From contig CP016211.1 of NCBI GenBank assembly GCA_001931535.1, forward strand, positions 4,567,573 to 4,631,572: a stretch of DNA of 64,000 bases, given 5' to 3'. Positions 6,458-61,827 of this stretch are shown here, piece after piece (positions within the stretch are counted from its first letter, which is position 1; the number at the start of each line of letters is the position of its first letter). The DNA is from Minicystis rosea. Lineage in GTDB: Bacteria; Myxococcota_A; Polyangia; Polyangiales; Polyangiaceae. Under the pieces are notes generated by a model, which saw only the letters and a list, made by a program, of their open reading frames with translations, did not search any database and had not been told where the DNA came from. Position numbers and translations under genes: made by a program.

Positions 6458-6904
6458 TCATCGTTTGAGTGCCAGCACCACCACGCCGCTGGCCACGAGC
6501 CCGATGCCCAGCCATTCTCGCCCCGACGGGCGCTCTCCGAGGAATATGAACGCGAACACCGCCACGAGCACTAGGCTGAGCTTGTCTACGGGCGCGACCC
6601 TGAAGGCTTCGCCGACTTGGAGCGCGCGGAAGTAGCATACCCAGGACGCGCCTGTGGCCAGGGCCGAGAGCGTCAGGAAACACCAAGCCTTCGGCGACAG
6701 GGATCGCGGGTCGCTCCACTTGCCAGCATAAACGACGAAGGCGGCCAGCACGACGATGATGATGGCGGTACGAAAGAGTGTCGCCAAATCGGGATCGACA
6801 CCACGGATACCCACTTTGGCGAAGATCGCCGTGAGCGCCGCAAAGCACGCGGAGAGGGTGGCCCAGAAAAACCAACCGTGCGGTATCGGCGGCATCGTTG
6901 TCAT
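6458..6904 (-). CDS. EamA/DMT-superfamily small membrane transporter
   Basis: Four predicted TM helices. 'WCFLTLSALATGASWVCYFRALQ…VAPVDKLSLVLVAVFAFIFLGERPS' is typical of the EamA domain. Start 'MTTMPP' overlaps the upstream stop as ATGA. Confidence 0.65.
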   Translation of the reverse strand: MTTMPPIPHGWFFWATLSACFAALTAIFAKVGIRGVDPDLATLFRTAIIIVVLAAFVVYAGKWSDPRSLSPKAWCFLTLSALATGASWVCYFRALQVGEAFRVAPVDKLSLVLVAVFAFIFLGERPSGREWLGIGLVASGVVVLALKR

Positions 6905-7248
6905 AAGCGTACGGCTCGACGTCCGGTGCCGCGCTTCGGCGCAGCCAATGCCGCGCGAACTCTTGCGAGCGCCGCGCTCGACATGCGCAGACGTCGTCGG
7001 TAGCCAACCCATGCATCACCGAGGTTGAGACTGCCAGTCGTGACAGGACTCGCACTGGCGAGGAATCTCTCCTGAACGGTGTCAGCGGCCGCATGAACGG
7101 TGGCGCGCAGGACGAGACGGCGCACGCCGTCCTGATCGCGACCGTCAAACACGCTGAGATCCGAGAGGCCGCCGTTGGCGTCGTTCTCCGTGCGCTTGGG
7201 CGGCGTCATCTTGCAGCCCGCCACCGTGATTGCTGCACGCGTCAGCAC
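6901..7248 (-). CDS. Small putative lipoprotein (GTG start); degenerate paralog of the 24471..25229 lipoprotein
   Basis: '(V/M)LTRAAITVAGCK…' lipobox-like. Its 5' leader is ~80% identical to the leader of 24471..25229. The ATG-initiated frame is broken by a 2-nt indel relative to that paralog, so the gene may be decaying. Confidence 0.3.
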   Translation of the reverse strand: MLTRAAITVAGCKMTPPKRTENDANGGLSDLSVFDGRDQDGVRRLVLRATVHAAADTVQERFLASASPVTTGSLNLGDAWVGYRRRLRMSSAALARVRAALAAPKRGTGRRAVRL

Positions 7249-7860
7249 TCATCGTGCTCCTCATTCGATTCTCCTCTCCGGGGTAGGTCCTGCTCGCCGA
7301 CATTGGCGCGGGGCCTCGAGAACCTTCAAATTTCGTAGGCACGCGCTCCAGCGGCGAGCGTCCTCGCCGCCCGTGAGCCGGATCACCATCGGTCCCCACG
7401 AACGCATTGTTGGCCCTTCCGAGAGCCGCCGCGCTGGGCGCGATCCGGTGCACCGCAGTAGGCGGCGAAGGCGCCGGTTCGTATCGGCATGCCAACCCGC
7501 GAAGAAAAATTCTGAAGCTCGAGGTCTTGTCGCGCCAAGGCTTGGCGCACACCCCTCGACGCCGGCAAGGAGACGCGACCGCCGCTCACGACTTCGCCCA
7601 ACTCACAATGTTCGCCTCCGATGCAGGGCGCCCTGCTCGCCGAGCTCGTAGCTACGCCTGCGTGACACGTCGGTTCCCACCCACGTGCACGATACGTGAA
7701 CGACCGTGCTGCTCCGCACCACTCTCCCTCTCGACCGTAGCGCACGACTCGCGCATCCATCGTTCCTTGCCAGCGGCCAGCGTGGCTGTCGCGACTGGCT
7801 CGGGGCATCGGTCGACGCACCACCTCCACGGGCTCTCGAGATGCCGGTGGAGGTCGTGAG

Positions 7861-8207: not shown

Positions 8208-9527
8208 ATGAGCCATCAACTCCTGTCATCTGCCGCGCTGCTCGGATTCTTCATCATGTCTCCTGCCCGCGCGCACGCGGAGCCGCCGCCGAGCCCGCCG
8301 TCCACCGTCGCTCCGCCCGCAGGCCCGGTCATCGAGCTCGCGCCCGATGACGCGGAGCCGAAGCTGCCTGCCGTCGCCATCGGGCAAGGGAAGGTCTCCG
8401 ACGCCGATGTCATGCGCGGGTTGCGCGAGCGGCGGTACCGCGCCGCTCAGGAGAGCCTCGGTCACACGTCGATTGGTGGCTACGGAGAGATTCAAGTGAT
8501 CGGGCTCACGAGCGGAAAAGACGACGCGCGGCAGTGGTCGGCCGACGTGCGTCGGCTGGTGCTTTTCGTCGCCCACTCGTTCACCAGCAACATCCGTGCG
8601 TACACCGAGCTCGAGGTCGAGCATGCCAAGCAGGTCGAGATCGAGCAGGCCATCGTCGATTGGACCGTGGCCGGCCGCTATCTTGGGCTGCGCGCCGGTC
8701 TCCTCCTCATTCCCATGGGCCTGACGAACGAAGTCCACGAGCCGCCAGCCTTCAACGGTGTCGTTCGCCCGCGACTGGAGACGGTGGTCATCCCCTCGAC
8801 GTGGCGGGAGCTCGGAGCAGGCTTCTTCGGCAATCCTACCGATACCCTCCGCTACCAACTCTATGCCGTCACGGGAATCAATCCCCTGGGTATGGCGGCC
8901 GGCGGCTTCGCCAGCGGGCTCGGCAACGGCGCGAACAGCAAGGCGAAGGCCTGGGCCGTAGTCGGGCGCGTGGAGTACGAGCCCGTCGCCGGCATCGTCG
9001 TCGGAGTCTCCGGTTACGCGAGCGACGCCGGGAAGAACGCCACGTATCATCTGCGCGATCGCTCCTCCGTGGACGTGAGCGTGCCAGTCCTCGGGTACTC
9101 GATCGACGCGCGCATGCGCCGCGCCGGTCTCGAGTGCAAAGCGCTCTTTACCGAATGGCACCTGCCGGGCTCGAGCGCACTCATGCACACGTTTGACGAT
9201 GCGGGCAAACGGCTCTTTGCCGACACCGCCGGCCCCCTGCCCACCCGGATGCGTGGAGCCTACGTCGAGGGTGGTTATGACGTCTTCCGCCCTTTCCACC
9301 TGTCCCATCAGCTCGTCCCCTTCGCACGGGTCGAGGGCTACAGCACGCAGGCCGCCGTCCCCGACGGCTTCAAGGCGAACCCCACATATTCGATCCGCGA
9401 GCACACCTTCGGCGTCTCGTATCGGCCGGTGCGTGAAGTCGCGGTCAAGGCCGACTACCAACTTCGCAATCGAAAGGCTGGACCGGACGAAACCCAGATC
9501 AACTTCGGAGTAGGATTCATGTACTGA
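8208..9527 (+). CDS. Outer-membrane beta-barrel porin-like protein
   Basis: Signal peptide 'MSHQLLSSAALLGFFIMSPARAHA', alternating beta-strand pattern, C-terminal '…INFGVGFMY' ending in an aromatic residue as in outer-membrane proteins. Resembles porin O/P-like proteins. Confidence 0.5.
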   Translation: MSHQLLSSAALLGFFIMSPARAHAEPPPSPPSTVAPPAGPVIELAPDDAEPKLPAVAIGQGKVSDADVMRGLRERRYRAAQESLGHTSIGGYGEIQVIGLTSGKDDARQWSADVRRLVLFVAHSFTSNIRAYTELEVEHAKQVEIEQAIVDWTVAGRYLGLRAGLLLIPMGLTNEVHEPPAFNGVVRPRLETVVIPSTWRELGAGFFGNPTDTLRYQLYAVTGINPLGMAAGGFASGLGNGANSKAKAWAVVGRVEYEPVAGIVVGVSGYASDAGKNATYHLRDRSSVDVSVPVLGYSIDARMRRAGLECKALFTEWHLPGSSALMHTFDDAGKRLFADTAGPLPTRMRGAYVEGGYDVFRPFHLSHQLVPFARVEGYSTQAAVPDGFKANPTYSIREHTFGVSYRPVREVAVKADYQLRNRKAGPDETQINFGVGFMY

Positions 9528-9615: not shown

Positions 9616-9741
9616 TCATCTGCACTTCGGCTTGGCCGCTCGACACGAGCTTACGAAAGGGTCACTCGCGTCCCGCTCACTTAAACGGCCGTCGCGTGTT
9701 GCCTCAACAAGCGACGCCATTGGGCAGGGGGGCTGTGTCAT
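9616..9741 (-). pseudogene. 5' remnant of an anti-sigma factor gene (first ~23 codons identical to anti-sigma 21822..22949, then a divergent tail and stop)
   Basis: 'MTQPPCPMASLVEATRDGRLSER' is identical to the N-terminus of the intact anti-sigma factor. It keeps the ATGA overlap with the sigma gene. Confidence 0.6.
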
Positions 9742-10343
9742 GTGCTTTTCTTCTTGGCGAGAGCGCGCCTCACCTCGGTGCGCGCATAATGTAGCCGGGT
9801 CCAAACCGTCCCCACCGGGATGTCGAGCGCGGCTGCAACCTCCTCACCGGAGAGCCCCTCGCGCTCAATCATCAGGAGAACGGCGCGCTTTTCCTCCGAA
9901 AGGCGCAGGACAGCCCGCGTGACCATCTCGATGTCTTGCGCGTCGGACGCCTCGTCCTCCGGGGACCGCGTCACGACGCGGGTCAACGTCTCTCCAAACG
10001 AGGCGATGATCCGCAGAAAACGGGCGTGTTTGCGTAGCCGATCGCGCGCGATCCGCGCAGCAATCCCGATCAGGAATGGACGCGCGCACGGCCGCCCATC
10101 GTACGTGGCACCGGCCCGCGGCAAGGCGAGGAAGGTCTCTTGAACGATGTCGTCGGCGTCGGCCGCACGCATGGTGAAGCGCAGCACGGAGCGGCGCACA
10201 TCGTCGTGATACCGATCGTAGAGCGCACCGAGCGCCGCGAGGTTGCCAGCGACAACTTTGGTGATGAGCTCGGCGTCGTCCTCCGCGCGATCCAAGCGCG
10301 TCATCACGGGGGCTTCTCCGCGAAGCTCGGCTCTGGATTTCAT
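9738..10343 (-). CDS. ECF (sigma-70 family) RNA polymerase sigma factor, copy 1 (orphan; its anti-sigma partner is truncated)
   Basis: '…FLALPRAGATYDGRPCARPFLIGIAARIARDRLRK…' (region 2) and 'LSEEKRAVLLMIEREGLSGEEVAAALDIPVGTVWTRLHYART' (region 4 helix-turn-helix). About 93% amino-acid identity to 22946..23551. Confidence 0.85.
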   Translation of the reverse strand: MKSRAELRGEAPVMTRLDRAEDDAELITKVVAGNLAALGALYDRYHDDVRRSVLRFTMRAADADDIVQETFLALPRAGATYDGRPCARPFLIGIAARIARDRLRKHARFLRIIASFGETLTRVVTRSPEDEASDAQDIEMVTRAVLRLSEEKRAVLLMIEREGLSGEEVAAALDIPVGTVWTRLHYARTEVRRALAKKKST

Positions 10344-10570
10344 AGAATGGCCATGTGCCAGAGCGCGATGGTGCACGCCTCGTCCTCGTCGAGCGCGCCC
10401 GCGTCCCCGAGCCGCGGTGGCAGCGAAGGCGCGCGTGTGGGGTCGCCCACCGCGTGCTTCGACGAGGCATCAATCTGATGGCCGCCCCACGCGCGATCGC
10501 ACGGCGGCGAGGGCGCGCAGCCGGGCAGCGCTCCGAGTGCGATGGCGCATCCGAGGGACCCACGAAGCAT
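10340..10570 (-). CDS. Hypothetical small lipoprotein
   Basis: 'MLRGSLGCAIALGALPGCAPS…' signal and lipobox. 76 aa. Sits upstream of the ECF sigma gene with a 4-nt overlap. Confidence 0.3.
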   Translation of the reverse strand: MLRGSLGCAIALGALPGCAPSPPCDRAWGGHQIDASSKHAVGDPTRAPSLPPRLGDAGALDEDEACTIALWHMAIL

Positions 10571-10670
10571 GGGCCGCGATGAGAGCACGCGCGTCTTAAC
10601 GGCACCTGAACACGGCCGCGCCTTGCTCCACGACGCTACGCCGGCGCGGCTCGCGCGCGTGGTAGACACA

Positions 10671-10775
10671 TGCGATCGCGTGCTCGTCGTGGACGACCAC
10701 ACAGAGGTTCGCGATCTCCTGGCGCGAAGCCTGCGCCGCGATGGTCACGAAATCGCCACCGCCGCGAGCGCGCCG
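10671..10775 (+). pseudogene. Fragment of a response-regulator receiver domain
   Basis: 'RVLVVDDHTEVRDLLARSLRRDGHEIATAASA' is an N-terminal REC motif; the rest of the frame is nonsense. Flanked by 20-bp direct repeats. Confidence 0.35.
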
Positions 10776-10889
10776 CGATCACTGCCGCCGAGGCCAGCGC
10801 CGCATTGCGGCGGCGCTTCGCGCTCGGGCATCACTATCGGTTTCGATGGGGCCTCGCCCCAACCCCCGCCGCGCTTCGCGCTCGGGCCT

Positions 10890-13861: not shown

Positions 13862-14843
13862 GGTGCAGCCTCGAGCCACGCTTCTCGCGCGTGGCGTGAC
13901 CTGCCGTAGCGTGGTTGGTGCGGGCGCCTGGGCCAGCGTCAAGCAGACGACAACTTAAGATCTCGGCTCAACAGATGACTTAGTATCTCGGCTCAACAAC
14001 CGCCGTTAACACGAATGCGGAACACCGGCAGGGCAATGCCCTGCCAATGCACACTTGCGTGGATGACGCAGAACGGAGCTCCGGGGCGGAATCACCGAAT
14101 GATGAAAGGGGACAGACACCGGCGGACATGGGGCGCAGCGGCGCGGCGCTCCACCTGCCTCGCATCGGGCCTCCGTTCGAATGACGCATTCACCCTTCTT
14201 GGCGCGCGGCTGGGAGAAACTTCATACTCATTGTGGTGCTTTTTCGCCCCAACCGTGAGCACGTTTGGTGCGCCGGTCTTCGTTGCGAAGCTCGTTGCAC
14301 GTCGGTGACATTTCGCCCTGTCTGCGATGGGGATTCGCGGCGCACAACATCCGCCCACGGAGATTCGCCGGGGCAATCGCGATGGATCTACCTGACAGTA
14401 TCAACGAGGCGGATGTCTTCGACGCATGAGCGTCGCTTGAGCCCGTCCGCGTCGCCTCGGCATTGCCGTGGGTGCTTGCGTGCGAGGGGCATCATGGTGA
14501 CCGATACGACGACACAGGTAAGCGAGGGGGCGCGAGCTTGTTTCTGGCTGTCGGGAGGGCCCCGTAGACTCATCGTGATTCGACCGTTGGGAATCGAACG
14601 GTCGATGCCGCGGATCCTCGCCGCGAGGAGGCTTGCGCCCTGGAACGAGGATTCAATGGGACCATGAGATGGCAAACCATCGCATTCGGGTGCGCGTTAG
14701 CCCTTGTCGCAACGGGGCTGGCGTTTATTACGGCATGTGCTGTTGGAAGAAGCCTGGGAAACTAACGCACTATTCCCTGAGCTTGCGCTCGCGGCAACCC
14801 GTGGGGATGGCTCCTTACAACCATGCTCTGGAGCAGGGCGATA

Positions 14844-16652: not shown

Positions 16653-17251
16653 TCCTATGCGGACGCGTCGACAGGTCGAATCAGCGCATTGCTGATGCGG
16701 TCTGCCATTGGGCGAGCTGGCGGCCGTCTCCGAAGATCTCGCGATGGTCGTCGAATCGACTCGTTCGCTTCCATGATGGTTCCCCGTCCGGAGCGAGATC
16801 CTTCATAAAAATCGTCTAGTAACAGCGCACGTACTTTTTATGAAGGTTCGCTAAAGAGCGCGCTAAGGCTTGCGGTTGTTCATTGCGCCCAAAGGGTCGG
16901 TGCGTGGAGCAGACGATTTGACTGAATGCCCCGACCGGAGAGCCGTGGAAGGACTCGCCTTCACGGGTCATGGCGCCTCGATCCCGAGACGGCCCGAGCA
17001 AGGACGCTGAACCCACTGTCGTTAGGTGGGGCACCTGGACTTGGAGTGTCGTGTCGCACTTTTCGATCGTCGAGTCGTCAGGTTGCTCGAGAGCAAGCGA
17101 TAGTTTCATGGGCTCGGTGCAACGAACGGTGACAATAGCCCGCTCGGACCGGTTTCGTTAGTTATGGGCGGTTATCCAGGCCACGTCTTGGCCCAATCGA
17201 GTCGACTTCGTCGGTCGTGTCGTTGTCCTCAATACCTACGGATTACCCATC

Positions 17252-18445
17252 ATGAACTGGCATAGTCTACTCACCGTTGCGCCAACCGCGCTGTCCGCGG
17301 TGCTGTTCTCCACGACGCATGCCGTCTTCACTCGAGCGCTGTCCCGTCGCTGTCCTCTCGACGGCTGCTCGACACCGCCACTCGTGAGCATCCTGAAGCC
17401 AATCGCGGGTTGCGACGAGGGCTTGCTCGACAACCTGACCTCGTTCGCCCATCTCGAAGGGGCGAGGTACGAGCTGCTTCTCGGCATTGCGTGCCCCGAT
17501 GACCCGGCCATTCCAGTGATCAGGACCTTTCTCGCAGCGCACCCGGCGCTCTCGGCGAGGCTCGTCGTGACCACCCCTCCCTGCGGGGAGATCCAGAATC
17601 CCAAGGTCGCGCAGCTCATCAGCTTGAGTCGCGCGGCGCGCGGCTCGGTCATCGTGGTCTCGGATGCGAACGTGCGCGTCTCACCGAGCCACCTGCGCTC
17701 GCTCCTGGCCGCGCTGTCGCAGCCCGGCATCGGTTTGGTCTCCTCCGTGGTGGTCGGCGGTGGCGAGCGAACGCTCGCCGCCGCCATCGATAGCGCCCAG
17801 CTCGGAGCCTATATCGCCCCGTCGGTCGTCGCAGCGCACACGCTCCGTCTCTGGCCCATCACGGTTGGAAAGACGATGGCCATGCGAAGTCGCGATCTGA
17901 CGTCGATCGGCGGCTTCGAGAGCGTCGGCGCAGTATTGGCCGAGGACGACGTGCTGGGGCAGCGGTTCGTCGCGCGAGGGCTCGGCGTGGCCCTGTGTCT
18001 GGAGCCCGTGGAGAACTACAGCCCGACGGCCTGTTGGTCCAGCGTTCTGAAGCGTCATGTCCGGTGGGCGGCGATGCGTCGCTCGCTGACCATGCTCGGC
18101 TTCGCCTTCGAGCTGTTTCTCTCTCCGCTCCTCGTCGCGACCGTCACTGCCGTCATCGCGCTCTCGCGCCTGTCTTTGGGCCTGCTGATCGCGGCGACCA
18201 TCTTCTCGTGTGGTGGCGCCTATCTCTCGCTCAGCCGCACGCGCCGCCAGAACGCGGCGGCGCTCGCCGCTCTCGAGCCGGTGCGGGTCGCTGTCATGTT
18301 CTCGTGCTGGCTCGCCGGTTGGTTCATTCGCACGGTCACCTGGCGGGGCAATGCCTTCCGGATCGCGAGCGGCACGAGGCTCACGTCCATCCTGGCCACT
18401 CCCGTCGCGAGCACGGCACGCGCGTCGGTGTCGCCCCATGGCTGA
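17252..18445 (+). CDS. Family-2 glycosyltransferase, ceramide glucosyltransferase / HpnI-like (Glyco_transf_21)
   Basis: 'VSILKPIAGCDEGLLDNLTSFAHLEGARYELLLGI…' N-terminal GT-A fold and C-terminal TM helices. Overall architecture matches the HpnI/GT21 family. Confidence 0.75.
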   Translation: MNWHSLLTVAPTALSAVLFSTTHAVFTRALSRRCPLDGCSTPPLVSILKPIAGCDEGLLDNLTSFAHLEGARYELLLGIACPDDPAIPVIRTFLAAHPALSARLVVTTPPCGEIQNPKVAQLISLSRAARGSVIVVSDANVRVSPSHLRSLLAALSQPGIGLVSSVVVGGGERTLAAAIDSAQLGAYIAPSVVAAHTLRLWPITVGKTMAMRSRDLTSIGGFESVGAVLAEDDVLGQRFVARGLGVALCLEPVENYSPTACWSSVLKRHVRWAAMRRSLTMLGFAFELFLSPLLVATVTAVIALSRLSLGLLIAATIFSCGGAYLSLSRTRRQNAAALAALEPVRVAVMFSCWLAGWFIRTVTWRGNAFRIASGTRLTSILATPVASTARASVSPHG

Positions 18446-18959
18446 TCCGCTCGAGATCGTGAGCGCGACGGCGACGCGCACGCCGCCCGTTCCAACCGCG
18501 GTTCGTCACATCACGCGCGCGCAAACCTGGCTCGCTGTGCGGTTGAGCACGTTCACGCGCTCGCTCGTCACGGGCGGCGCCGCATCGCTGGCGGACCTGG
18601 CCACGCTCGGGGTCGCCGTCGGCGCGTTCGAGGTCTCTCCGGCGACGGCGAGCATTCCAGCGCTCCTCACCGGCGCCAGCGTGCAGTTCTTCGGCAACCG
18701 ACACTTCGCCTTTCGAGCCACGTCGGGGCGAGTCCGGCGCCAGGCGTTGCTCTTCGTCGCTACCGAGGTCATGGGCCTGATCTTCAATGCGCTGCTCTAC
18801 GATCGCGTGGCCGCGTTGCTCCCAGCCACCGCGACGAGCGCAGTCTTCGGCCGAGTCGTCACCACGAATCTCGTCTTCCTGCTGTGGAGCTATCCAATGT
18901 GGTGCCGCGTCTTCCGCACGAACGACATGAGCCAATCGATGTGGGGTAAGGCATCGTGA
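18441..18959 (+). CDS. GtrA-family membrane protein (polysaccharide/glycolipid biosynthesis associated)
   Basis: Four TM helices; 'GGAASLADLATLGVAVG…VQFFGNRHFAFR' is a GtrA signature. ATGA overlap with the GT2 gene. Confidence 0.7.
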   Translation, partial: ADPLEIVSATATRTPPVPTAVRHITRAQTWLAVRLSTFTRSLVTGGAASLADLATLGVAVGAFEVSPATASIPALLTGASVQFFGNRHFAFRATSGRVRRQALLFVATEVMGLIFNALLYDRVAALLPATATSAVFGRVVTTNLVFLLWSYPMWCRVFRTNDMSQSMWGKAS

Positions 18960-21490
18960 AACGTGAACCGTCGACTCCTATGCGAGCGCACACACTGGTT
19001 CACTGGCTCATCCGGCTTCAGCTCGAGCGGCCTCACGTGGTCATCACGGTCGTCGCGCTGCTGAGCGCCTGCGCCCTGGCCCTGGCAGCTCGTCTCGAGC
19101 TCCTGATGGGCTTCGAGAGCCTTCTGCCCGACGCTCGGCCGAGCGTTCAAGAGCTCCGCCGCGTCGCTGCGCGAACGAGCGGTGTATCGACGCTGTTCGT
19201 CGTCCTGGAAGGCGAGGATCCACACGCCTTGCGCTGCACGGGGGATGCCCTCGTGCCGGCGCTGATCGCGTTGGGGCTGCCGTGGGTCGGTCAGGCAGAG
19301 GACGGAGTCCACGATGCTGCGAAGTTTCTCACGCCGCGAGCGGGGCTGTACGCAGACTTGAAGGGGCTCGAGCAGCTCCGCGACGACGTCGAGGCGCGCG
19401 TCGCCTACGAGGTCGGCGAGCAGACCGGTTCGAACCTGCCGCTCGATCCGGCAGACGTCCCGCCACCGCTCGACGCCGATCTCTTGAAGAAGCGTCTGGG
19501 CGTGAACGCAGCCGACGAGAAACGCTTCCCGGACGGTTACTATCAGAGCCAGGACGGCAAGACACTCGTGGTCGCGATTCGCTCGGCGGTGATGGCGAGC
19601 GACTTCACCAAGGGGCGAGAGGCGATGGCGAGGGTTCGCGCCGTCGTCGAGCAGGTGAGCCCACGGTCGTTCGATCCGACGGCGAAGTGGGGAATCACCG
19701 GCGATCTCGCAATCGGCGTCGGCGAGTATGATGCCATCAACCGAGACCTGACTGAAGTCGGCGTCGCCGGTGCCTTGCTCATCCTCGGTGTCGTCTCTCT
19801 CTATTACCTCCGGCTGCGTGCGGTGGTCGCCATGAGCATCACGATCGCAGTCGGTCTGGCGTGGACCTTCGGTCTCACGCAGCTTGCACTCGGTCACCTC
19901 AACCTCGCGACCGGATTCCTCTTCACCATCATCGGTGGCAACGGCATCAACTTCAGCATCATCTACATGGCGCGCTACCTCGAGGAGCGCCGGAGTGGGC
20001 GCTCGCTTTCACAGGCCATCACCGTAGCGCATCTGGAAACCTGGAAACCGACGCTCACCGCCGCCGCCGCCGCGTCCGCCGCCTATGGGTCTCTCGTCAT
20101 CACGGCATTCCGAGGCTTTCGCGAATTCGGTATCGTCGGCGGCGCCGGGATGGCGATCTGCTGGCTCGCCACGTATCTCTTGCTTCCTGCAGTCCTCGTC
20201 GTGATGGAGCGAGTCGTTCCGCTCGACCGCGTGCGCAGCGGGCTGGTCGGCAAAATCCAGCGAGCCACCGATGTGGGTATTCCCTTCGGCGAGCCTTTCG
20301 CTCGTCTCGTCGAGCGCGCGCCGCGCTTCCTCACCGTCGTCGGTTTGGCATTGACGTGCGCCGGTGTCGACCTGGCGGCCCGCTACCTTCGCACCGATCC
20401 GATGGAATACGATCTGGCGCAGGTCCAAAGCGACCAGCGCGTCGTCGGCGAGGCGCAGCGGCTCATCCACGCCGCGAAGGCGATTACCGGCTACATCGGC
20501 CTCGACGGCATGGCCATCCTCGTTGACCGTGTCGAGCAGGTGCCGCCGCTCAAGCGGGCGCTCGAAGCGCGACGCGACGCCGCGCCCGCCGGTGCCAAGC
20601 CCTTCAAGGCGCTGCATGCGCTCCAGGACTTCGTGCCGGCGGACCAGCGCGAAAAGCTCGATATCCTAAGTCGGCTCGCAGAGCGAGCACGCTGGGCGCG
20701 GCGGCGCGGCCTGGTGCGTGATGCTGATTGGTCCAAGATCGAGCCCTTCCTCCCCACGTCCGAGGTTCAGCCCTTCGGGATTGCGGACTTGCCCGACGCG
20801 CTCGCGCGGCCGTTCACCGAGCGTGACGGCACGCGCGGTCGGGTCGTGTACATCAGCCCGACCGACGGTGAGCTCACCAGCGACGCGCGATATCTCTTCC
20901 GGTGGGCCGATTCGTTTCGTCGGACCGCGCTCCCCGACGGGAGTGTCGTTCTCGGCTCCGGCCGCGCGGTGATCTACGCAGACATGTGGTCCGCGATCCT
21001 CGATGACGTCCCGCCCGCGGTCTGCCTCTCCTTCACCGCGACGTTCCTCATCGTCATTGCCGCGTTTCGCGGAAGACGCGCATCGCTCGGCATACTGGCT
21101 GCGCTCCTGATCGGAGTCTCCTGGATGGCGGGCCTCCTGGCCTTGCTCGGCGCCAAGCTGAACTTCCTCAATTTCATCGCCCTGCCCATCACCTTTGGTA
21201 TCGGCGTCGACTACGCGGTCAACATCGTGGAGAGAGATTGCCACCTGCGCGACGCGCTGGGCGCGCTTCGCCGCACGGGAGGCGCGGTCATCCTCTGTAG
21301 CCTGACCACCCTGCTGGGATATCTGGCTCTCGTGAAATCGATGAACCACGCAGTTCGGAGCCTCGGTGTCGCCGCGGTAATCGGCGAGATTGCATGCTTG
21401 CTGGCGGCCGTGCTCGTACTGCCTGCTGCGCTCGTCTGGTGGCGGTCACGCGCCTGGGGTGTCCGGAAATCATCTGACTCGGCAATCTGA
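18956..21490 (+). CDS. MMPL/RND-family transporter (HpnN-like lipid exporter)
   Basis: 843 aa with two 6-TM bundles each preceded by a periplasmic loop. MMPL-type motifs ('GIDYAVNIVER', 'AICWLATYLLLPAVLVVME'). GTG start overlaps the GtrA stop. Confidence 0.85.
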   Translation: MKREPSTPMRAHTLVHWLIRLQLERPHVVITVVALLSACALALAARLELLMGFESLLPDARPSVQELRRVAARTSGVSTLFVVLEGEDPHALRCTGDALVPALIALGLPWVGQAEDGVHDAAKFLTPRAGLYADLKGLEQLRDDVEARVAYEVGEQTGSNLPLDPADVPPPLDADLLKKRLGVNAADEKRFPDGYYQSQDGKTLVVAIRSAVMASDFTKGREAMARVRAVVEQVSPRSFDPTAKWGITGDLAIGVGEYDAINRDLTEVGVAGALLILGVVSLYYLRLRAVVAMSITIAVGLAWTFGLTQLALGHLNLATGFLFTIIGGNGINFSIIYMARYLEERRSGRSLSQAITVAHLETWKPTLTAAAAASAAYGSLVITAFRGFREFGIVGGAGMAICWLATYLLLPAVLVVMERVVPLDRVRSGLVGKIQRATDVGIPFGEPFARLVERAPRFLTVVGLALTCAGVDLAARYLRTDPMEYDLAQVQSDQRVVGEAQRLIHAAKAITGYIGLDGMAILVDRVEQVPPLKRALEARRDAAPAGAKPFKALHALQDFVPADQREKLDILSRLAERARWARRRGLVRDADWSKIEPFLPTSEVQPFGIADLPDALARPFTERDGTRGRVVYISPTDGELTSDARYLFRWADSFRRTALPDGSVVLGSGRAVIYADMWSAILDDVPPAVCLSFTATFLIVIAAFRGRRASLGILAALLIGVSWMAGLLALLGAKLNFLNFIALPITFGIGVDYAVNIVERDCHLRDALGALRRTGGAVILCSLTTLLGYLALVKSMNHAVRSLGVAAVIGEIACLLAAVLVLPAALVWWRSRAWGVRKSSDSAI

Positions 21491-21821: not shown

Positions 21822-22949
21822 TCAGGGCCGACTGGGCTCGGCCAGGATCGCCTCCGCCTCCGCGCGGCGATAGCCCGTCGGATACAGCGCCAGGTAGCGG
21901 CGCGCCTCCGCGCGGGCGGCGGCCATACGGCCGGCGCGTTGCAGCGAGACCATGGCCAGAAATGCAGCGTCTTCGGCTCGCTCGTCACTCGGATATGCCT
22001 CGCGGAAGGCCGAGAGCTGCCGGGCGGCGGCATCGTAGTCCCCTCGGTCGGCGAGCCGGATACCTTCGCGCAGCGTATCCGCTGGATCCCGACGCGCGCT
22101 CTGCTCGTCCGGCCCCGGCTTGGCACCGGGGTGGTCGGACGAAGTCGCAGCGGATGTCGACCTGGCGAACACGGTAGATTCAGAAGGACCTTTCGGATTG
22201 GGTGTTGGCCTGGCAGGCACAGTCGCTCCTACCTCCGAGGGGCAGGACCAACGCTCTCCGGCGGCCACCAACCATGTCGTGCCGTGAAATCTCACCTCGA
22301 CCTTGCCCTCGGTTACGCGCACCGCGCGTAGGTGAGACGATCGCGCCTCGACGTGAAAGCGGGTACCACGCACCTCGACCTCAGCGTCAGCCGTGCGCAC
22401 GATGAAGCGCTCGGCGCCATGGAGCGGCCGAACTGAGAGCGCAATCACACCATCGTGCAAGGCCACGATCTCCGTGCCATCCGCCTTGGTGCGCATGAAC
22501 ACTGCCTTTCCGTCGGGAACGACCGTCGTTTCCGTGCGCATATGCAGTTCGGCAGGTGTCCCTTGCATATCGATCGGGGGCGCGATGGACCGCTGGATCT
22601 TCGGCAAGTGGGCGAGGATGGCGGGCCGTTCGGGCTCGTGATGATGTGCGATCCACCGAATAGCGGGCACGATGAGGAGCAGGAGTGCCACGTGTCGTCC
22701 CATGTTCGGCACAGGGCGCCGTGGTCGCGCAGCTTCGCGGAGTAGGGCGAGGCGTCCACGCTGCTTCTCCAAACGCGTGAGGGGTTGCACGCGCAGGATT
22801 CCACCCAGGTGGTCGAGCTCGGCCTTGAGTGCGGCGCATGCAGGACACACGAGAAGGTGGCGCGCGACCGAGGTCGCTTCCCGCTCGCTTAGACGGCCGT
22901 CGCGTGTTGCCTCAACAAGCGACGCCATTGGGCAGGGGGGCTGTGTCAT
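21822..22949 (-). CDS. Anti-sigma factor (zinc-finger N-terminus, FecR-like domain, TPR-like C-terminus)
   Basis: 'LLVCPACAALKAE' zinc-finger anti-sigma N-terminal domain. FecR-like beta region 'AEVEVRGTRFHVEA'. TPR-like C-terminus. ATGA overlap with the upstream ECF sigma gene. Confidence 0.75.
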   Translation of the reverse strand: MTQPPCPMASLVEATRDGRLSEREATSVARHLLVCPACAALKAELDHLGGILRVQPLTRLEKQRGRLALLREAARPRRPVPNMGRHVALLLLIVPAIRWIAHHHEPERPAILAHLPKIQRSIAPPIDMQGTPAELHMRTETTVVPDGKAVFMRTKADGTEIVALHDGVIALSVRPLHGAERFIVRTADAEVEVRGTRFHVEARSSHLRAVRVTEGKVEVRFHGTTWLVAAGERWSCPSEVGATVPARPTPNPKGPSESTVFARSTSAATSSDHPGAKPGPDEQSARRDPADTLREGIRLADRGDYDAAARQLSAFREAYPSDERAEDAAFLAMVSLQRAGRMAAARAEARRYLALYPTGYRRAEAEAILAEPSRP

Positions 22950-23551
22950 GTGCTCCTCTTCTTCACGAGAGCGCGCCTCACCTCGGTGCGCGCATAGTGT
23001 AGCCGGGTCCAGACCGTCCCCACCGGGATGTCGAGCTCGGCTGCGACCTCCTCACCGGAGAGCCCCTCGCGCTCAATCAACAGGAGAACGGCGCGCTTCT
23101 CCTCCGAAAGGCGCAGGACAGCCCGTGTGACCATCTCGATGTCTTGCGCGTCGGACGCCTCGTCCTCGGGGGTCCGCATCACGACGCGGGTCAACGTCTC
23201 TCCAAACGAGGCGATGATCCGCAGAAAACGGGCGTGTTTGCGCAGCCGATCGCGCGCGATCCGCGCAGCGATCCCGATCAGGAATGGACGCGCGCACGGC
23301 CGCCCGTCGTACGTGGCGCCGGCCCGCGGCAAGGCGAGGAAGGTCTCCTGAACGATGTCGTCGGCGTCGGCCGCACGCACGGTGGAACGCAGCACGAAGC
23401 GACGCACGTCGTCGTGATAGCGATCGTAGAGCACACCGAGCGCCGCGAGGTTGCCTGCAACGACTTTGGTGATGAGCTCGACGTCATCCTCCGCGCGGTC
23501 CGGACGCGTCATCACGGGGTCTTCTACGGGCATCTCGGCTCTGGATTTCAT
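22946..23551 (-). CDS. ECF sigma factor, copy 2 (with intact anti-sigma partner)
   Basis: Near-identical paralog of 9738..10343. Sigma-70 regions 2 and 4 are present. Confidence 0.85.
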   Translation of the reverse strand: MKSRAEMPVEDPVMTRPDRAEDDVELITKVVAGNLAALGVLYDRYHDDVRRFVLRSTVRAADADDIVQETFLALPRAGATYDGRPCARPFLIGIAARIARDRLRKHARFLRIIASFGETLTRVVMRTPEDEASDAQDIEMVTRAVLRLSEEKRAVLLLIEREGLSGEEVAAELDIPVGTVWTRLHYARTEVRRALVKKRST

Positions 23552-24471
23552 CGAATGGCCACGTCGACACCGAACGTGAGCCCTACGGAGTAGGCGGGGA
23601 GCGGCGGCAAAACAGGATCGATTCGGCGCGCTCCGATGGCGCTGGCAGGCGCGACCTCACCGTCGATCCCCAAGACCCCGCGCCAGGTCCGACTCCAGTG
23701 GAGCGTCGCGCGGAGCCCGAGCGCGACACGCGCATCCACCTTGGCGCCCTCAGCCTCGCTCCCCTGCTGGCGCGCCTCCATGGAGACGATGCCAATCGAT
23801 GGATCGAATGCCACTTGCAGCTCCAGGACTCGGGTCATGAGGATCCTGCGGCTGACTGAGAGGCCAAGCCCCAGGTCCGACATTGAGAAATCGCCAGGGA
23901 CCTCATCGAATGTGTGCGGCAGACCGAGCCGTCCCCAAGCCCCCACCGACCAGGTACCGAAGGGGACTGCGGCGCGAAGCGTGGCCGTCCCCCACAACGC
24001 TCGAAGGGCGCCGCCGTATCGAATCCCCGCCAGCGCCTCGATGAGCAAGCGCGGCTCCGAAGGGCCTTGTAACGGCGCGCTCACGGACTCGACCGGAGAT
24101 GATGGCGCACGAGCGAGCGGAGGCCATTGCAGCGAGAACGCGAGCAACGCTTCGACGGTGGGCAGGAGCTCAGTGGGGCCTGTCACCTGGCGAGTCGCCA
24201 CTCTCCCATGTGAATCGGTACGAGTGATGGTCGCGTTCTCTAGAGCTGAGCTCACGCGAAGGCGCAGCTCCCCTCCGGCACAACTCCATATGTGCCCCTC
24301 TTCGGCGATGGCGACCGCGACGTCGTCGTACGCCTGTTGCCAGGCGGCGGACAGGACGGCTTCCTCGACGATTAACTGCGGCGGTACGCACGACTCGGCC
24401 CGTACCGAGACGGCGCTGATCAACAGCGTCGTCGTGGCCACGAGGACGAGCCGTGCGCGCCGCCGCCCCAT
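23548..24471 (-). CDS. Hypothetical secreted protein
   Basis: Signal-like 'MGRRRARLVLVATTTLLISAVSVRAES'. No family recognised. Coupled by 4-nt overlaps to the flanking genes. Confidence 0.45.
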   Translation of the reverse strand: MGRRRARLVLVATTTLLISAVSVRAESCVPPQLIVEEAVLSAAWQQAYDDVAVAIAEEGHIWSCAGGELRLRVSSALENATITRTDSHGRVATRQVTGPTELLPTVEALLAFSLQWPPLARAPSSPVESVSAPLQGPSEPRLLIEALAGIRYGGALRALWGTATLRAAVPFGTWSVGAWGRLGLPHTFDEVPGDFSMSDLGLGLSVSRRILMTRVLELQVAFDPSIGIVSMEARQQGSEAEGAKVDARVALGLRATLHWSRTWRGVLGIDGEVAPASAIGARRIDPVLPPLPAYSVGLTFGVDVAIR

Positions 24472-25229
24472 CAATCGTCGTCCTGCTCGGTATCGTCGTC
24501 GTGCTCTTCGCCGTCGCCATCGCCGGCTGCGCACCCAATGGAGCTCGGTACCTCGAGGTCCGGAACGCCCATCGCATGCGTCGGATCCGCGCTGCTCGCG
24601 TCGTCGGCGGTCTCGGCGTCGGCGTCGTTCGCATCATCAGCCGTCTCCGTGTCGGCGTCGTCGTTCGTCTCGCCGTCGGACGCGCCGTCGCTCGTGGAGT
24701 TTGCCTGCGGGCCGCCGTCGCAGACTTGCTTCGTCTGCGCGTCGATGCCATCCACGCAGTCCGCCCCTCCGTCATCGTTCGTCTCGCCATCGCCGTCCCC
24801 CGCGGAGCAGGCCTGGACTGCCTTGCCTGCGGCACCTGGCGTGATCGGAGCGATCCTGCTGCGCGCCGTGAGCGCAGCGCGGAATCGAACGACGCCGATA
24901 TCGACGCTTGCGCCGATGGACTTCACGGCGACCATGGTCTCGAGGTGCCCCTTGTTGCTGCGCAGGACGAGCGGCGTGACCGTACTGCCTGCCGACAGCA
25001 TGAAGTGGTAGCTACTGCCACTCGGCAGCGGAAGCGAGAACCTGCCATCCACCGCGACCGCAACGTCGAACGACGTGCCCTTGTCACTGATAACCGTGAT
25101 GGCCGTTACCGCATCAGGGAACGACCCCTGCTGGACTTGTCCGCGGACGATCGACGATCCCGGTTGCGTCGAGCTGCAACCCGCCGCCGTGATACTCGCC
25201 AGCGCGAGCGCACCCATCATGCTCCTCAT
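24471..25229 (-). CDS. Acidic lipoprotein with Asp/Glu/Thr-rich C-terminal tail and repeated C-x-DGDGE motifs
   Basis: 'MRSMMGALALASITAAGCSS' lipobox. Ribosome-binding site GGAGAGGAG. C-terminus 'CSAGDGDGETNDDGGADCVDG…CAAGDGDGEEHDDDTEQDDD'. Confidence 0.6.
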   Translation of the reverse strand: MRSMMGALALASITAAGCSSTQPGSSIVRGQVQQGSFPDAVTAITVISDKGTSFDVAVAVDGRFSLPLPSGSSYHFMLSAGSTVTPLVLRSNKGHLETMVAVKSIGASVDIGVVRFRAALTARSRIAPITPGAAGKAVQACSAGDGDGETNDDGGADCVDGIDAQTKQVCDGGPQANSTSDGASDGETNDDADTETADDANDADAETADDASSADPTHAMGVPDLEVPSSIGCAAGDGDGEEHDDDTEQDDD

Positions 25230-26170
25230 TCTTCGATTCTCCTCTCCAGGGTTAGTCACCCCGCTCATCGACGTTGGCGCGGGGCGTTGTGAACCTTCAA
25301 AAAAACCGAAGGCTCGCGACACAAGGAGCGAAGCGCCTTCTTCGTTCGTGGGCCGGCCCACGCCTCCTCCTTCCATGGCGCCTCGAGAAGTAAGGAGTCG
25401 ATATCGAGGCTCCCGCACAAGTTGATTTCGCCCATTCGACGATGCGCAAATACTCTGAAGGTTCTTCGCAGGCGTCGCCAAGAAGACGCCCACGCGTTGG
25501 TAGCGTGCAGCCAAACGGTAGACTTGATGCGAGCGCCGTGGGGCCAACGCCTCGCTGTGGAAAGCACCCGCCCCCGCGGGGTCTGGTGCGCGCACCTTAC
25601 TGAGCTGAAAGAGCACCCTGAGCTCAGCACTCCTCTCCTTGATCCTCTCCGCGCGGATAAGGACAAATACGTTCAAGACACCGTGGCGAATTGGCTCAAC
25701 GATGCAAGCAAAAGCCCCCCCAATGGGTAAAGGCCACATGCGCCCAGTGGGCTCGGAGCGGGGACGCTGCAACGCTCCGGATCGTGAAGCGGGCCTCGCG
25801 CATGTGGAGCCGCCGCTCGGCGCTGAACGCTTCGTGTGACACGCCCGAGCGTTCGAAGGCCTCGATGATCGTCGACCACTCGCTTGCGACGTCTACGCGC
25901 CTGCATGCGCGACCCTTGCCCGCTCGAGCGGCGGCGGGCAGAGGGTCAGGGCTCGTGGCGGCGGGTCACGGGCGTGACTCCGCTCCTCCAGATCGCGACA
26001 AATCAGCAGGCTGCATGATGTCGTTCGAGATCGTGGCCGCTGATTTAGCCACCCTGGTTGCGTTTTGCGAGCGTGGGGACGAGCAACGGCGCACGATGCC
26101 CCGACGTCGCTCTATCTCGATGAATCATGAGCTTACTCGAGGCTTTGACCAAGCGATGGGCAGCGCTCCG

Positions 26171-27579: not shown

Positions 27580-27649
27580 ACCCTACCCGCCCGGGCGCCG
27601 TCCCGGAGGCGCCCGCGCGAACAGCCCCGGCGACTCCATCCGATCGCGG

Positions 27650-27720
27650 CACCGGCAGCGGCATCTCGCCCGAGCTGCTCCCGCACATCTTCGGCCGCTA
27701 CTCGCGCGAGCGCTCCGGAC
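27650..27720 (+). pseudogene. ~70-nt fragment copied from a histidine-kinase G-box (paralog of 400..470)
   Basis: 'gcggcatctcgcccgagctgctcccgcacatcttcggccgctactcgcgcgagcgc' is ~85% identical to window positions 405-462. It encodes '[17 protein letters not shown]' with no kinase context. Confidence 0.5.
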
Positions 27721-27976
27721 GCCGTGCTCCCGGGGCGCTCCGCGGCGGGCGCTGTGCGAGCATCCGTGGGCCTGCTCCCTCGGATCGAGGTCCTCGGCCT
27801 CACGCTCTCGGACGAGCCCGTCGCGGTGGCAGAGCTCGGCCCCCATCTGATGAACCTCCAGATCGCGGGTGTGCTCGGCGTTCAGCGGCTCTTCCGCCGT
27901 GATGTGGTGATCCTCGATTATGTATGCCGCCGCGCGCGTCGAACGATCGCGGCAGAGCCGGGCCGAAGGTTAGCCG

Positions 27977-29147: not shown

Positions 29148-29426
29148 CGGTGCCGAGGGTACTCCGGCGTCGACAGAAGGCCATTCCTGGGCCGCATCAC
29201 GAGAGCACGGCGGCGGCGATCTTCGCACGTCATGTCGCTGTTCGCGGCCGCCCTGCGGATCGCCTTGTCCACGCGGATTGAGAGGCGCGCGCGCTGTCCC
29301 GTGAACTTCTTCGCGAGGGCGCTTGGGACGCGCCGTACGCGGCGGGGTGGCGGGACGCTCGTCTTACGCGCCGTTAAGCCGTTGCACCGCATGCCGCATT
29401 GGCGCGGCGCATCCCGAGGGAGGTAC

Positions 29427-37640: not shown

Positions 37641-37722
37641 CGAAGGTGGGAGCCCGGTGCGGGAAATCCGCCCGCCGGGTTCTGTCCGGGGGGCGGCCCG
37701 AAAGAGCCGTCCCTACCGGGAT
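37641..37722 (+). mobile_element. Orphan group II intron 3' remnant (domains V-VI only)
   Basis: 'GAGCCCGGTGCGGGAAATCCGCCCGCCGGGTTCTGTCCGGGGGGCGGCCCGAAAGAGCCGTCCCTACCGGGAT' is ~90% identical to DV-DVI of the full intron. No IEP or DI-IV lies upstream. Confidence 0.6.
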
Positions 37723-44077: not shown

Positions 44078-44454
44078 ATTTACCTATTCCTCCGGCGAAC
44101 GAGCGAAGCCGCGCTACCGTCGCGCAATCGATGGCAAGCGAGAGCCTCTCGAAACACACCAGCGAGCCGGGCTCAAACGTGGTTTGACAGTGAAATGAGT
44201 GCTGTTGCCACTTCGACATGGCACATCGCATCCTAGGCGCGACCTAAAGAGAGCCTCTCTTTAGGTCGCGCCATGGTGCACATTCGCGTCCCCTTCCTCA
44301 ATGCGACGCCATCGCATAAAGTCTCTTTATTCTCCATCACGGAATCCAAGGTGGCAGTCTTTTCGGGCCCGCGATTGCCACCTTCGCCCCGATGCGCGCT
44401 GTGGCGCAGACGCTCTCGGCTGTTGTACGCGAGGGACTCCAGCCGCGTTTGCGC

Positions 44455-54775: not shown

Positions 54776-55948
54776 TCACGCCGCGAGGACGACCTTCTCG
54801 CAACCGTCGAGCTTGTTGACGAACAGGTCGTATCCGCGGGGCGCGTCCTCGAGCTTCATGCGATGGGTGATGACGAAGCTCGGATCGATCTCGCCCTTCT
54901 GGATGCGCTCGAGCAGCGGGCGCATGTAACGCTGCACGTGGCACTGGCCGCTCTTGATGGTGAGCGAGCGGTTCATCACGGCGCCCATGGGGAACTTGTC
55001 GATGAAACCGCCGTACACGCCGATGACGCTGACGATGCCGCCGTTGCGGCACGCCTGGATCGCCTCGCGCAGCGCGATCGGGCGATCGGTCTCGAGCCGC
55101 ATGGCCTGCTTGGCGCGGTCGTAGGCGAACATCGGCCCGTGTCCGTGCGCCTCCATGCCCACGGCGTCGATGCACGCGTCGGGGCCGCGCCCGGCGGTCA
55201 TCTCGGCGAGCGCCTCGAGCACGTCCACCTCCTCGTAGTTGATCGTCGCCGACGCGCCTGCCTTGTCCCGCGCCATCTGGAGCCTATACGGGAAGCGATC
55301 GATGGCGATCACGCGCTCGGCGCCGAGCAGGCGCGCGCTGGCGACGGCGAGCAGACCGACCGGGCCCGCGCCCCACACGGCCACGACGTCGCCGGGCTCG
55401 ATCTCGGCCATCTCCGCGCCCATGTAGGCCGTCGGGAAGATGTCGGAGAGGAAGAGCACCTGTTCGTCAGTGAGCTCGGCCGGGACCTTGATCGGCCCGA
55501 CGTCGGCGAACGGCACGCGCGCGTACTCGGCCTGGCCGCCCGCATAACCGCCCAGCAGGTGCGAATAGCCGAAGATGCCCGCCGGCGAGTGGCCCCACAG
55601 CTTCTCGGCCATCCAGGCGTTGGGGTTCGAGTTCTCGCAGACCGAATACAGCTCCTCCTTGCACATCGCGCAGGTGCCGCAGGCGATGGGGAAGGGGACG
55701 ACCACGCGATCGCCGACCTTCAGGTTCTTCACCCCGGGCCCGACCTCGACGACCTCGCCCATGAACTCGTGGCCGAGGATGTCGCCCTTCTCCATGGTGG
55801 GGATGAAGCCGTTGAAGAGGTGCAGATCCGAGCCGCAGATGGCCGTCGACGTGATCTTGATGATGGCGTCGTGCGAATTCAGGATCTGCGGATCCGGCAC
55901 GTCCTCGACCCGAACCTTCCTCTTGTCGATCCAGCTGTTGGCTTTCAT
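54776..55948 (-). CDS. Zn-dependent alcohol dehydrogenase, glutathione-independent formaldehyde dehydrogenase-like
   Basis: 'CGSDLH', '[12 protein letters not shown]', structural-zinc Cys cluster '[15 protein letters not shown]', 'VWGAGPVG' Rossmann motif. Confidence 0.85.
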
Positions 55949-58961: not shown

Positions 58962-58965
58962 AGCG

Positions 58966-60506: not shown

Positions 60507-61827
<1,321 letters not shown>

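Follow-up and report, generated by a model that had tools for sequence, protein, structure and literature searches.

Analysis of a 64,000-nt stretch of DNA (hereafter the window) from Minicystis rosea showed that a partial-operon duplication has given rise to a retained paralogue of an extracytoplasmic function (ECF) sigma factor, which is an orphan in cis. The source is the 16.04-Mb chromosome of strain DSM 24000, on which the neighbouring entries APR78557.1 and APR78559.1 anchor the window. The displaced sigma factor is referred to here as sigma1, its twin in a complete signalling cassette as sigma2, and the anti-sigma factor encoded beside the latter as anti-sigma2; the two sigma factor domains are written σ2 and σ4. 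The case is an ordinary, well-preserved multiplication of a regulator and not a new kind of system. In the reading that we consider rather probable, sigma1 is a functional paralogue with a new transcriptional input, which anti-sigma2 probably still sequesters in trans; we infer its expression, its inhibition in trans, and its regulon from the sequence. The duplicated block and the two sigma genes are located as follows.

9666..10356, minus strand: copy 1 of the duplicated block, delimited by the ungapped alignment with 22874-23564 (93.3% identity; flanks unalignable)
22874..23564, minus strand: copy 2 of the block, in the native cassette context (ungapped alignment)
9738..10343, minus strand: sigma1, an intact 201-aa ECF sigma factor, APR78558.1 (Pfam Sigma70_r2 3.6e-14, Sigma70_r4_2 4.8e-12)
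22946..23551, minus strand: sigma2, a 201-aa ECF sigma factor, APR78570.1 (Pfam; protein cluster look-up)

The two copies have the same orientation and a constant offset of 13208, and their ungapped alignment of 691 nt comprised 645 identities, 32 transitions, and 14 transversions. A repeat search identified this block as the longest direct repeat in the window, and the genes concerned are all encoded on the minus strand. A chance or low-complexity match is ruled out by the length of 691 nt, the identity of 93%, and the lack of gaps. The initial annotation of this DNA had proposed a segmental duplication of an ECF sigma gene at 9668-10365 and 22870-23563. This was borne out by the repeat and by the presence of the Sigma70_r2 and Sigma70_r4_2 domains in both copies; the coordinates were correct within a few bases, and the estimate of identity was essentially correct.

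The 5' edge of the block lies 13 nt before the sigma ATG (10343 and 23551 in copies 1 and 2, respectively), which is closer than the approximately 20 nt originally given, and 52 nt before the GTG start used in GenBank. The 3' edge lies 76 nt into the anti-sigma gene, after codons 1-25 and one further base. The block therefore spans the sigma gene in full, together with 76 nt of the anti-sigma gene and, from an upstream gene designated X, the final 13 nt (four codons and the stop). That a 5' segment of the anti-sigma gene had been carried along was recognised correctly in the initial annotation, although its extent was set too short, at 69 nt or 23 codons; in the shared part, residues 1-23 are identical, residue 24 changes from E to D, and residue 25 is again identical. 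The ATGA overlap at the sigma/anti-sigma junction is kept in both copies, as had been stated, and a second ATGA overlap joins the upstream open reading frame (ORF) to the sigma ATG in both. Beyond the edges no homology was found: the Smith-Waterman scores of the 200-nt flanks were equalled by 83 and 63 of 300 shuffles, so that the block boundaries are sharp. The output of tblastx on the flanks was dominated by high-GC compositional noise. Microhomology at the 5' junction amounts to at most 2 nt (“AC”). With collinear copies, sharp edges, unrelated flanks, and copy 2 in its ancestral context, the block is a segmental (partial-operon) duplication, and copy 1 is a 691-bp excerpt of the cassette placed 13.2 kb away through non-homologous joining.

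The sigma1 and sigma2 proteins share 92% amino acid identity. In both, Sigma70_r2 was found at residues 41-108 and Sigma70_r4_2 at residues 139-189, and their scores of 76-77 bits against TIGR02937 (cut-off 42.9) assign them to the ECF (group 4) sigma-70 factors. Their closest sequence matches in the PDB were SigL and RpoE, and no NCBIfam equivalog scored above its cut-off for either protein. The GenBank name of sigma1 (APR78558.1), “sigma-54 factor RpoN,” is wrong. Homologues at 50-79% identity mostly begin with MK or MR and are about 200 aa long; therefore, the ATG at 10343 and 23551 is favoured over the annotated internal GTG. Among the matches listed, the scan of genome contigs returned relatives at about 40% identity or less, and the metagenome scan returned mostly distant ECFs.

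Copy 2 is located in a four-gene cassette that encodes a lipoprotein, X, the ECF sigma factor, and a zinc-type FecR/TPR anti-sigma factor, and all of its junctions overlap (TGATG, ATGA, and ATGA). The genes around sigma2 are the following.

21822..22949, minus strand: anti-sigma2, 375 aa (Pfam zf-HC2, FecR, YfiO, TPR_16)
23548..24471, minus strand: X, secreted, with a predicted outer-membrane beta-barrel of 8 strands at the C-terminus; overlaps sigma2 as ATGA, homologue in 5/5 related loci
24471..25229, minus strand: lipoprotein, first cassette gene; 32% identity (E 4e-23) to the gene in the same position in locus L088, lipobox AAGC

The AlphaFold2 model of anti-sigma2 (40 homologues; mean predicted local distance difference test score, pLDDT, of 80) contains helices at residues 9-16, 22-34, 36-52, and 59-74, which have pLDDT values of 80-97, followed by a transmembrane segment at about 87-103, a beta (FecR) domain at 142-235, and a TPR domain at 289-370. 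The zinc-type motif consists of C6 and H31-x3-C35-x2-C38, and E13, A14, R19, R30, H31, C35, and C38 are invariant in the 40 homologues. The zf-HC2 score of 22.4 bits against a cut-off of 22.2 identifies the N-terminus as a class I zinc-type anti-sigma domain. The ligands of ChrR (H6, H31, C35, and C38) have the same spacing as those of anti-sigma2. The model of X, built from only four sequences with a pLDDT of 71, shows an N-terminal alpha/beta domain and an eight-stranded barrel, for which Foldseek returned NspA, OmpA, OprF, and OmpX (E 5e-7 to 2e-5).

X, sigma, and anti-sigma genes occur together in five related loci (L006/L007, the P0008 locus, L088, L089, and L090). In 5/5 of them the sigma start lies within a 4-nt overlap with the preceding gene (260-336 aa), and an anti-sigma gene of the FecR type follows; the homology of X across the loci reaches E 3e-48, and the lipoprotein is homologous where present (E 4e-23). 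Two shorter metagenome contigs (L010 and L012) have the same gene order. A third complete cassette is located elsewhere in the M. rosea genome (A7982_08359, the sigma gene product APR83011.1, and A7982_08361), its sigma factor being 79% identical to sigma2. Judging from this architecture, the cassette looks like a trans-envelope signalling unit. A literature search found no characterised member of this Polyangia cassette family and no description of the family. The protein collection contains sigma2 but nothing identical or nearly identical to anti-sigma2, X, or the lipoprotein, and the genes for these three appear to be unannotated in the GenBank record.

Copy 1 is surrounded by truncated genes.

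10340..10570, minus strand: 76-aa chimeric ORF, APR78559.1, in which 72 efflux codons are joined to the final 4 codons of X and its TGA, which overlaps the ATG of sigma1
10680..10775, plus strand: N-terminal fragment of a receiver domain, about 32 aa (Pfam Response_reg positions 1-32 of 111, E 0.0026, below the curated cut-off)
9616..9741, minus strand: remnant anti-sigma ORF of 41 codons, unannotated (tblastn of anti-sigma2 residues 1-26, E 2.7e-10)

An exhaustive phmmer search identified two homologues of the efflux stub, P0244 (103 aa, 58% identity, E 2.6e-16) and P0247 (445 aa, Pfam OEP 5.7e-22). The match covers a lipoprotein signal and the first ~72 residues and stops at ...IALW, at window positions 10355-10357, which is the block edge. 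In a tblastn search, residues 13-76 of P0247 mapped to 10549-10355 and nowhere else in the window; the stub lacks full-length OEP repeats, and nothing in the window corresponds to the OEP domains of P0247 (residues 263-441). Copy 1 has replaced everything after codon 72 of a gene for an outer-membrane efflux lipoprotein of the TolC/CzcC type. The stub continues in frame to the stop of X, and thus the ATGA overlap with sigma1 is kept. The end of X inside the block and the truncated efflux gene around it, that is, a captured 5' context, are additions to the initial annotation. Divergent from the efflux stub, the receiver fragment RVLVVDDHTEVRDLLARSLRRDGHEI has the sequence of a typical receiver N-terminus. 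The interval 10357-10775 would then be the vestige of a divergent response-regulator/efflux locus, of which the shared promoter region and two 5' ends are left.

At the other end of the block, residues 1-25 of the remnant derive from anti-sigma2 and are followed by 16 unrelated codons with a GC content at third codon positions (GC3) of 0.44; the ORF ends after 41 codons, as originally described, and has an ATGA overlap with the sigma1 stop. It keeps helix 1 of the sigma-binding domain and four residues of helix 2. The class I domain was not recognised in it: H31, C35, C38, helix 3, and helix 4 (the σ2-binding helix) are gone, with C6 alone left, in agreement with the earlier statement that the zinc-binding motif is missing. 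The 41-aa product is absent from the protein collection. If the block is removed in silico, the efflux stub and the tail of the remnant form one continuous frame; we took this for chance, given the GC3 of the tail and its lack of similarity to the efflux homologues. The remnant is most likely an inert by-product. The description of copy 1 as an orphan holds in cis only; a full anti-sigma gene is present 13 kb away on the same chromosome.

The sigma1 gene shows a pattern of substitution that points to retention. For the sigma pair, the Nei-Gojobori method (NG86) gave a synonymous divergence (dS) of 0.17 and a ratio of nonsynonymous to synonymous divergence (dN/dS) of 0.23 over the full gene, or of 0.17 when codons 1-13 are left out. 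A protein-level comparison that used the third paralogue as outgroup assigned 9 replacements to sigma1 and 6 to sigma2, and 1 was ambiguous. Neutral evolution would predict ~38 replacements on the sigma1 lineage instead of the 9-10 seen (Poisson P about 9e-8). In addition, sigma1 has no stop or frameshift and keeps 42/42 invariant columns of a 25-sequence family alignment. By these measures, sigma1 is intact, under purifying selection, and not decaying.

Control of sigma1 by anti-sigma2 was assessed at the positions through which sigma factors of this type are bound. Sigma residues that touch class I anti-sigma domains in all four co-crystal structures are listed in Table 2 of PMC7406223, the text of which adds R178. 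In RpoE, the contacts are residues 22, 23, 26, 27, 31, 35, 47, 51, 54, 58, 131, 135, 149, 150, 151, and 178 (PMC7406223). A HMMER alignment with 1OR7_A mapped them to positions 38, 39, 42, 43, 47, 51, 64, 68, 71, 75, 141, 145, 159, 160, 161, and 188 of the M. rosea proteins, and sigma1 and sigma2 agree at 16/16 of them. The two proteins differ at 16 other positions, namely 7, 8, 9, 11, 17, 24, 40, 52, 56, 58, 125, 127, 158, 172, 196, and 199. The segments aligned to the -10 and -35 recognition regions of RpoE are identical in both copies. Since both the contacts and the recognition segments are the same, the simplest expectation is that sigma1 serves the same regulon and is sequestered by anti-sigma2 in trans. 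Control of sigma1 by anti-sigma2 would therefore be the default expectation from these sequences, and the suggestion in the initial annotation that sigma1 is possibly unregulated is unsupported, all 16 mapped contact positions being unchanged.

The transcriptional input was examined through a motif that lies upstream of the cassette.

25274..25299, minus strand: candidate cognate (autoregulatory) cassette promoter, TGAAGGTTC-N9-CGCGCCAA, 45 nt upstream of the first cassette ATG
25274-25299 (minus), 7303-7328 (minus), 14199-14224 (minus), 16841-16866 (plus), 25456-25481 (plus), and 7513-7538 (plus): copies of the motif, with two pairs divergent
14199..14224, minus strand: closest same-strand motif upstream of sigma1, at the head of a minus-strand gene run

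Six intergenic sites in the window match the motif with at most 3 mismatches, against 0.33 expected, and an A/T-rich stretch precedes each. In L006 (p 0.01) and L088 (p 0.001) the motif likewise precedes the cassette, and it is unconvincing in more distant loci. No copy was found directly upstream of sigma1, including the stretch from the cytochrome genes to sigma1, and the duplicated block contains none. The run behind 14199-14224 encodes a lipoprotein, a cytochrome c, an ORF with CxxCH, and an SO2930-family diheme cytochrome c, and ends 319 nt before the efflux stub. No significant structure was predicted by RNA folding downstream of sigma1 (z -1.0) or of the cytochrome gene (z -1.9).

The proposed mechanism can be outlined as follows. 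Sigma1 would drive the same regulon as sigma2 and remain sequesterable by the anti-sigma2 made from the cassette. In place of the cassette promoter, its transcription should depend on the promoter captured from the efflux gene, on read-through from the cytochrome c genes upstream, or on both, and its translation would stay linked to that of the efflux stub ORF through the in-frame junction, which retains the ATGA overlap. Sigma1 would then be made without a stoichiometric, co-translated anti-sigma factor and would add anti-sigma-free sigma to the pool. The shifted sigma:anti-sigma ratio might result in a higher basal output, a lower threshold of the envelope response, or a second input.

Several observations weigh against sigma1 as a functional paralogue held by anti-sigma2. 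The dN/dS value is a two-sequence estimate from 41 differences. A sigma-70 scan found no promoter near sigma1. The assignment of TGAAGGTTC-N9-CGCGCCAA as the candidate promoter of the regulon of this cassette ECF family is itself deduced, and the strict promoter matrix was significant in only 2/10 related loci tested. Sigma1 is surrounded by gene debris, namely the efflux stub, the receiver stub, and an older sigma fragment 2.4 kb away, and such a setting would also fit a bystander copy. At the protein level, the sigma1-derived changes F52S and S56F shift a family-conserved aromatic residue by one helical turn in region 2.1, beside contact residue 51; the 24 other aligned sequences all have F, H, or Y at position 52, and the differing positions 40 and 158 also adjoin contact residues. 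Within ECF groups, specificity is reported to depend on the contacts that helix 4 makes with region 2.1/2.2 (PMC7406223). Given this role and the changes in region 2.1, cross-binding is not guaranteed.

Alternatively, sigma1 might be rearrangement debris in a genome expanding through duplication, little or not expressed and heading to decay, with its conservation a matter of youth or chance; we regard this as unlikely. The truncated genes nearby (to the stubs and the sigma fragment at 7057-7330 is added a histidine-kinase fragment at 27624-27729) are in line with it, and so are the lack of a detectable promoter or Shine-Dalgarno sequence for the sigma1 ATG, for which no obvious one was seen, and the finding that 44% of M. 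rosea genes are paralogues (PMC8436480). A dS of 0.17, however, means that the copy is not very young, and the replacements on the sigma1 lineage remain far below the neutral expectation in a 606-nt frame that is whole and keeps all family-invariant residues. True decay is seen in the older fragment, with ~77% identity, a frameshift, an internal deletion, and truncation.

7057..7330, minus strand: older, internally deleted and truncated copy of the cassette, with promoter, 5' untranslated region, and lipoprotein start fused to sigma codons about 13-73

In this fragment, 7217-7330 is 81.6% identical to 25180-25301, and the frameshifted part at 7057-7210 is 76.6% identical to 23333-23513 (sigma2) and 72.1% identical to sigma1 (tblastn E 1.9e-8).

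In another alternative, sigma1 has diverged at region 2.1 (F52S with S56F, and V40A) so far that anti-sigma2 no longer holds it, and its constitutive output would be set by transcription alone. This comes near to the unregulated sigma factor suggested in the initial annotation. The conservation of position 52, the sigma1 origin of both changes in the swap, and the specificity proposed for the region 2.1/2.2 contacts with helix 4 (PMC7406223) speak for such an escape, which we nevertheless consider quite improbable: the 16 common contact positions are unchanged at an overall identity of 92%, and the same surface binds the RNA polymerase core, so that the swap may be merely compensatory. A still more doubtful reading assigns a role to the remnant as a weak σ4-binding mini-modulator of sigma1, which together with F52S/S56F would create a differently gated input under the promoter of a former efflux pump. 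Helix 1 of the remnant, LVEAxRDGR, is the most strongly conserved part of the anti-sigma domain and retains 3 of the 7 invariant residues of that domain (E13, A14, and R19) and 4/5 of the nearly invariant ones. The only hint in this direction is the low number of replacements in the 25 shared codons, where 2 synonymous changes and 1 replacement were counted against ~4.8 replacements expected if neutral (Poisson P about 0.05, hand calculation).

Gene conversion, in which a 691-bp tract recently overwrote one of two old paralogous sigma genes standing at both sites, could draw on the longer family history seen in the third paralogue (79% amino acid identity) and the old fragment, as well as on the somewhat denser differences in the first 260 nt (all sites, Fisher p 0.02), but it is very improbable given flanks without residual DNA or protein similarity, the efflux stub instead of X upstream of copy 1, the lack of an anti-sigma gene downstream, third-position differences that are not significantly heterogeneous (p 0.12), and the absence of unusually long identical tracts. 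For the same reasons (flanks, third positions, and tracts), a discrete non-homologous insertion with deletion is favoured as the origin of copy 1. A retro-copy made by the nearby group II intron reverse transcriptases was set aside because the block starts inside X and ends inside the anti-sigma gene, and its boundaries do not match a transcript unit.

Sigma1 as a retained paralogue under trans control has its closest parallel in the non-canonical, unlinked EcfG paralogues of Alphaproteobacteria, such as EcfG2 of Rhizobium etli and the six EcfG copies of Methylobacterium extorquens (PMC3892343, PMC4814048). There, the primary copy stands beside NepR and PhyR, extra copies without an anti-sigma factor are found elsewhere, and the paralogues have regulon and regulators wholly or partly in common and supply a single response with additional inputs or feedback (PMC3892343, PMC4814048). 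However, EcfG belongs to another ECF group and is controlled by the NepR/PhyR partner switch, whereas the M. rosea system has a transmembrane zinc-type FecR/TPR anti-sigma factor. The EcfG paralogues are also old and diverged, in contrast to the M. rosea copy, in which, at 93% nucleotide identity, the breakpoints, the stubs of both neighbours, and the destroyed gene are still visible.

The protein pair itself resembles RpoE-RseA (1OR7), SigE-ChrR (2Q1Z), SigW-RsiW (5WUQ), and SigK-RskA (4NQW) in the σ2 and σ4 domains of the sigma factor. It shares with such class I pairs a four-helix N-terminal anti-sigma domain, the H-x3-C-x2-C motif with an upstream ligand at position 6, and a translationally coupled anti-sigma gene; it differs in that the extracytoplasmic part consists of FecR and TPR domains and that the operon starts with a lipoprotein and an 8-stranded outer-membrane barrel. 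In architecture only, the cassette is reminiscent of FecA-FecR-FecI, where an outer-membrane protein, a transmembrane anti-sigma factor with a FecR domain, and an ECF sigma factor are encoded together. In M. rosea, however, X is a small OmpA/OmpX-like barrel and not a TonB-dependent transducer, the anti-sigma N-terminus is of the zinc type, and iron-uptake genes are absent. The orphan ECFs sigma-AntA (Streptomyces) and SigZ (Bacillus subtilis) likewise have no anti-sigma gene alongside (cited in PMC7826278). Unlike sigma1, whose near-identical twin has an anti-sigma factor 13 kb away, they have no cognate anti-sigma factor anywhere and are subject to other controls.

The growth of the M. rosea genome mainly by duplication has been described previously, and duplication of signalling and transcription genes is proposed as the main way in which the giant myxobacterial genomes grow (PMC8436480). 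Such events are rarely caught young enough to be read in detail; here, the breakpoints, the donor, the destroyed recipient, and a decayed older sibling are preserved within 20 kb. The arrangement illustrates one route to an unbundled sigma/anti-sigma module, in which the sigma factor is parted from its sensors, its own promoter, and its stoichiometric inhibitor. A sigma gene relocated behind the promoter of another gene with translational coupling intact is also a simple and testable form of regulatory rewiring.

Further features were observed around the cassette and its copies. The older cassette copy lies just upstream of an EamA transporter gene (6458-7012), to which it may have brought a promoter of the cassette type. 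Beside the complete cassette, at 17252-21490 (plus strand) and behind a copy of the motif, are genes for an HpnI-like glycosyltransferase (TIGR03472, below cut-off) and an HpnN/BstA-like MMPL transporter. An MMPL gene is found near the cassette in L090 as well (8378-8603), and these neighbours hint that the cassette regulon concerns the export of envelope lipids. The 353-aa gene adjoining the L090 cassette is unrelated to the 353-aa cytochrome upstream of sigma1. The stop of the diheme cytochrome c gene is followed directly by two identical copies, in direct orientation, of the 17-nt sequence GCCCGAGCGCGAAGCGC (10813-10829 and 10871-10887, minus strand), which lie 58 nt apart and may represent a small repeat element or the scar of a rearrangement.

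Other repeats are located farther away. The histidine-kinase fragment at 27624-27729 covers ~105 nt of an ATPase domain, shares 79% identity with 367-471 in the kinase gene at the beginning of the window, and sits in a region of poor coding signal (25.5-28.4 kb). A group II intron copy at 29414-31311 (minus strand) contains a reverse-transcriptase ORF at 29511-31223 (RVT_1 7e-35) and domains D1-D4 (Rfam RF02005). Group II intron material is also present at 37648-37722 (plus) and 61097-61319 (minus), in the form of a second D1-D4 without the reverse-transcriptase ORF and an orphan domain 5/6 piece that matches 29414-29514 in inverted orientation at 92%. A pair of zinc-type alcohol dehydrogenase paralogues is encoded in inverted orientation at 54776-55948 (minus) and 58831-60135 (plus); the two genes share 72-79% nucleotide identity over about 1.1 kb and flank ~3 kb. 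Finally, an 877-aa cysteine-rich DUF4215 repeat protein is encoded at 41598-44231 (minus), and its internal DNA repeats account for two of the repeat families in the window (D2 and D4).

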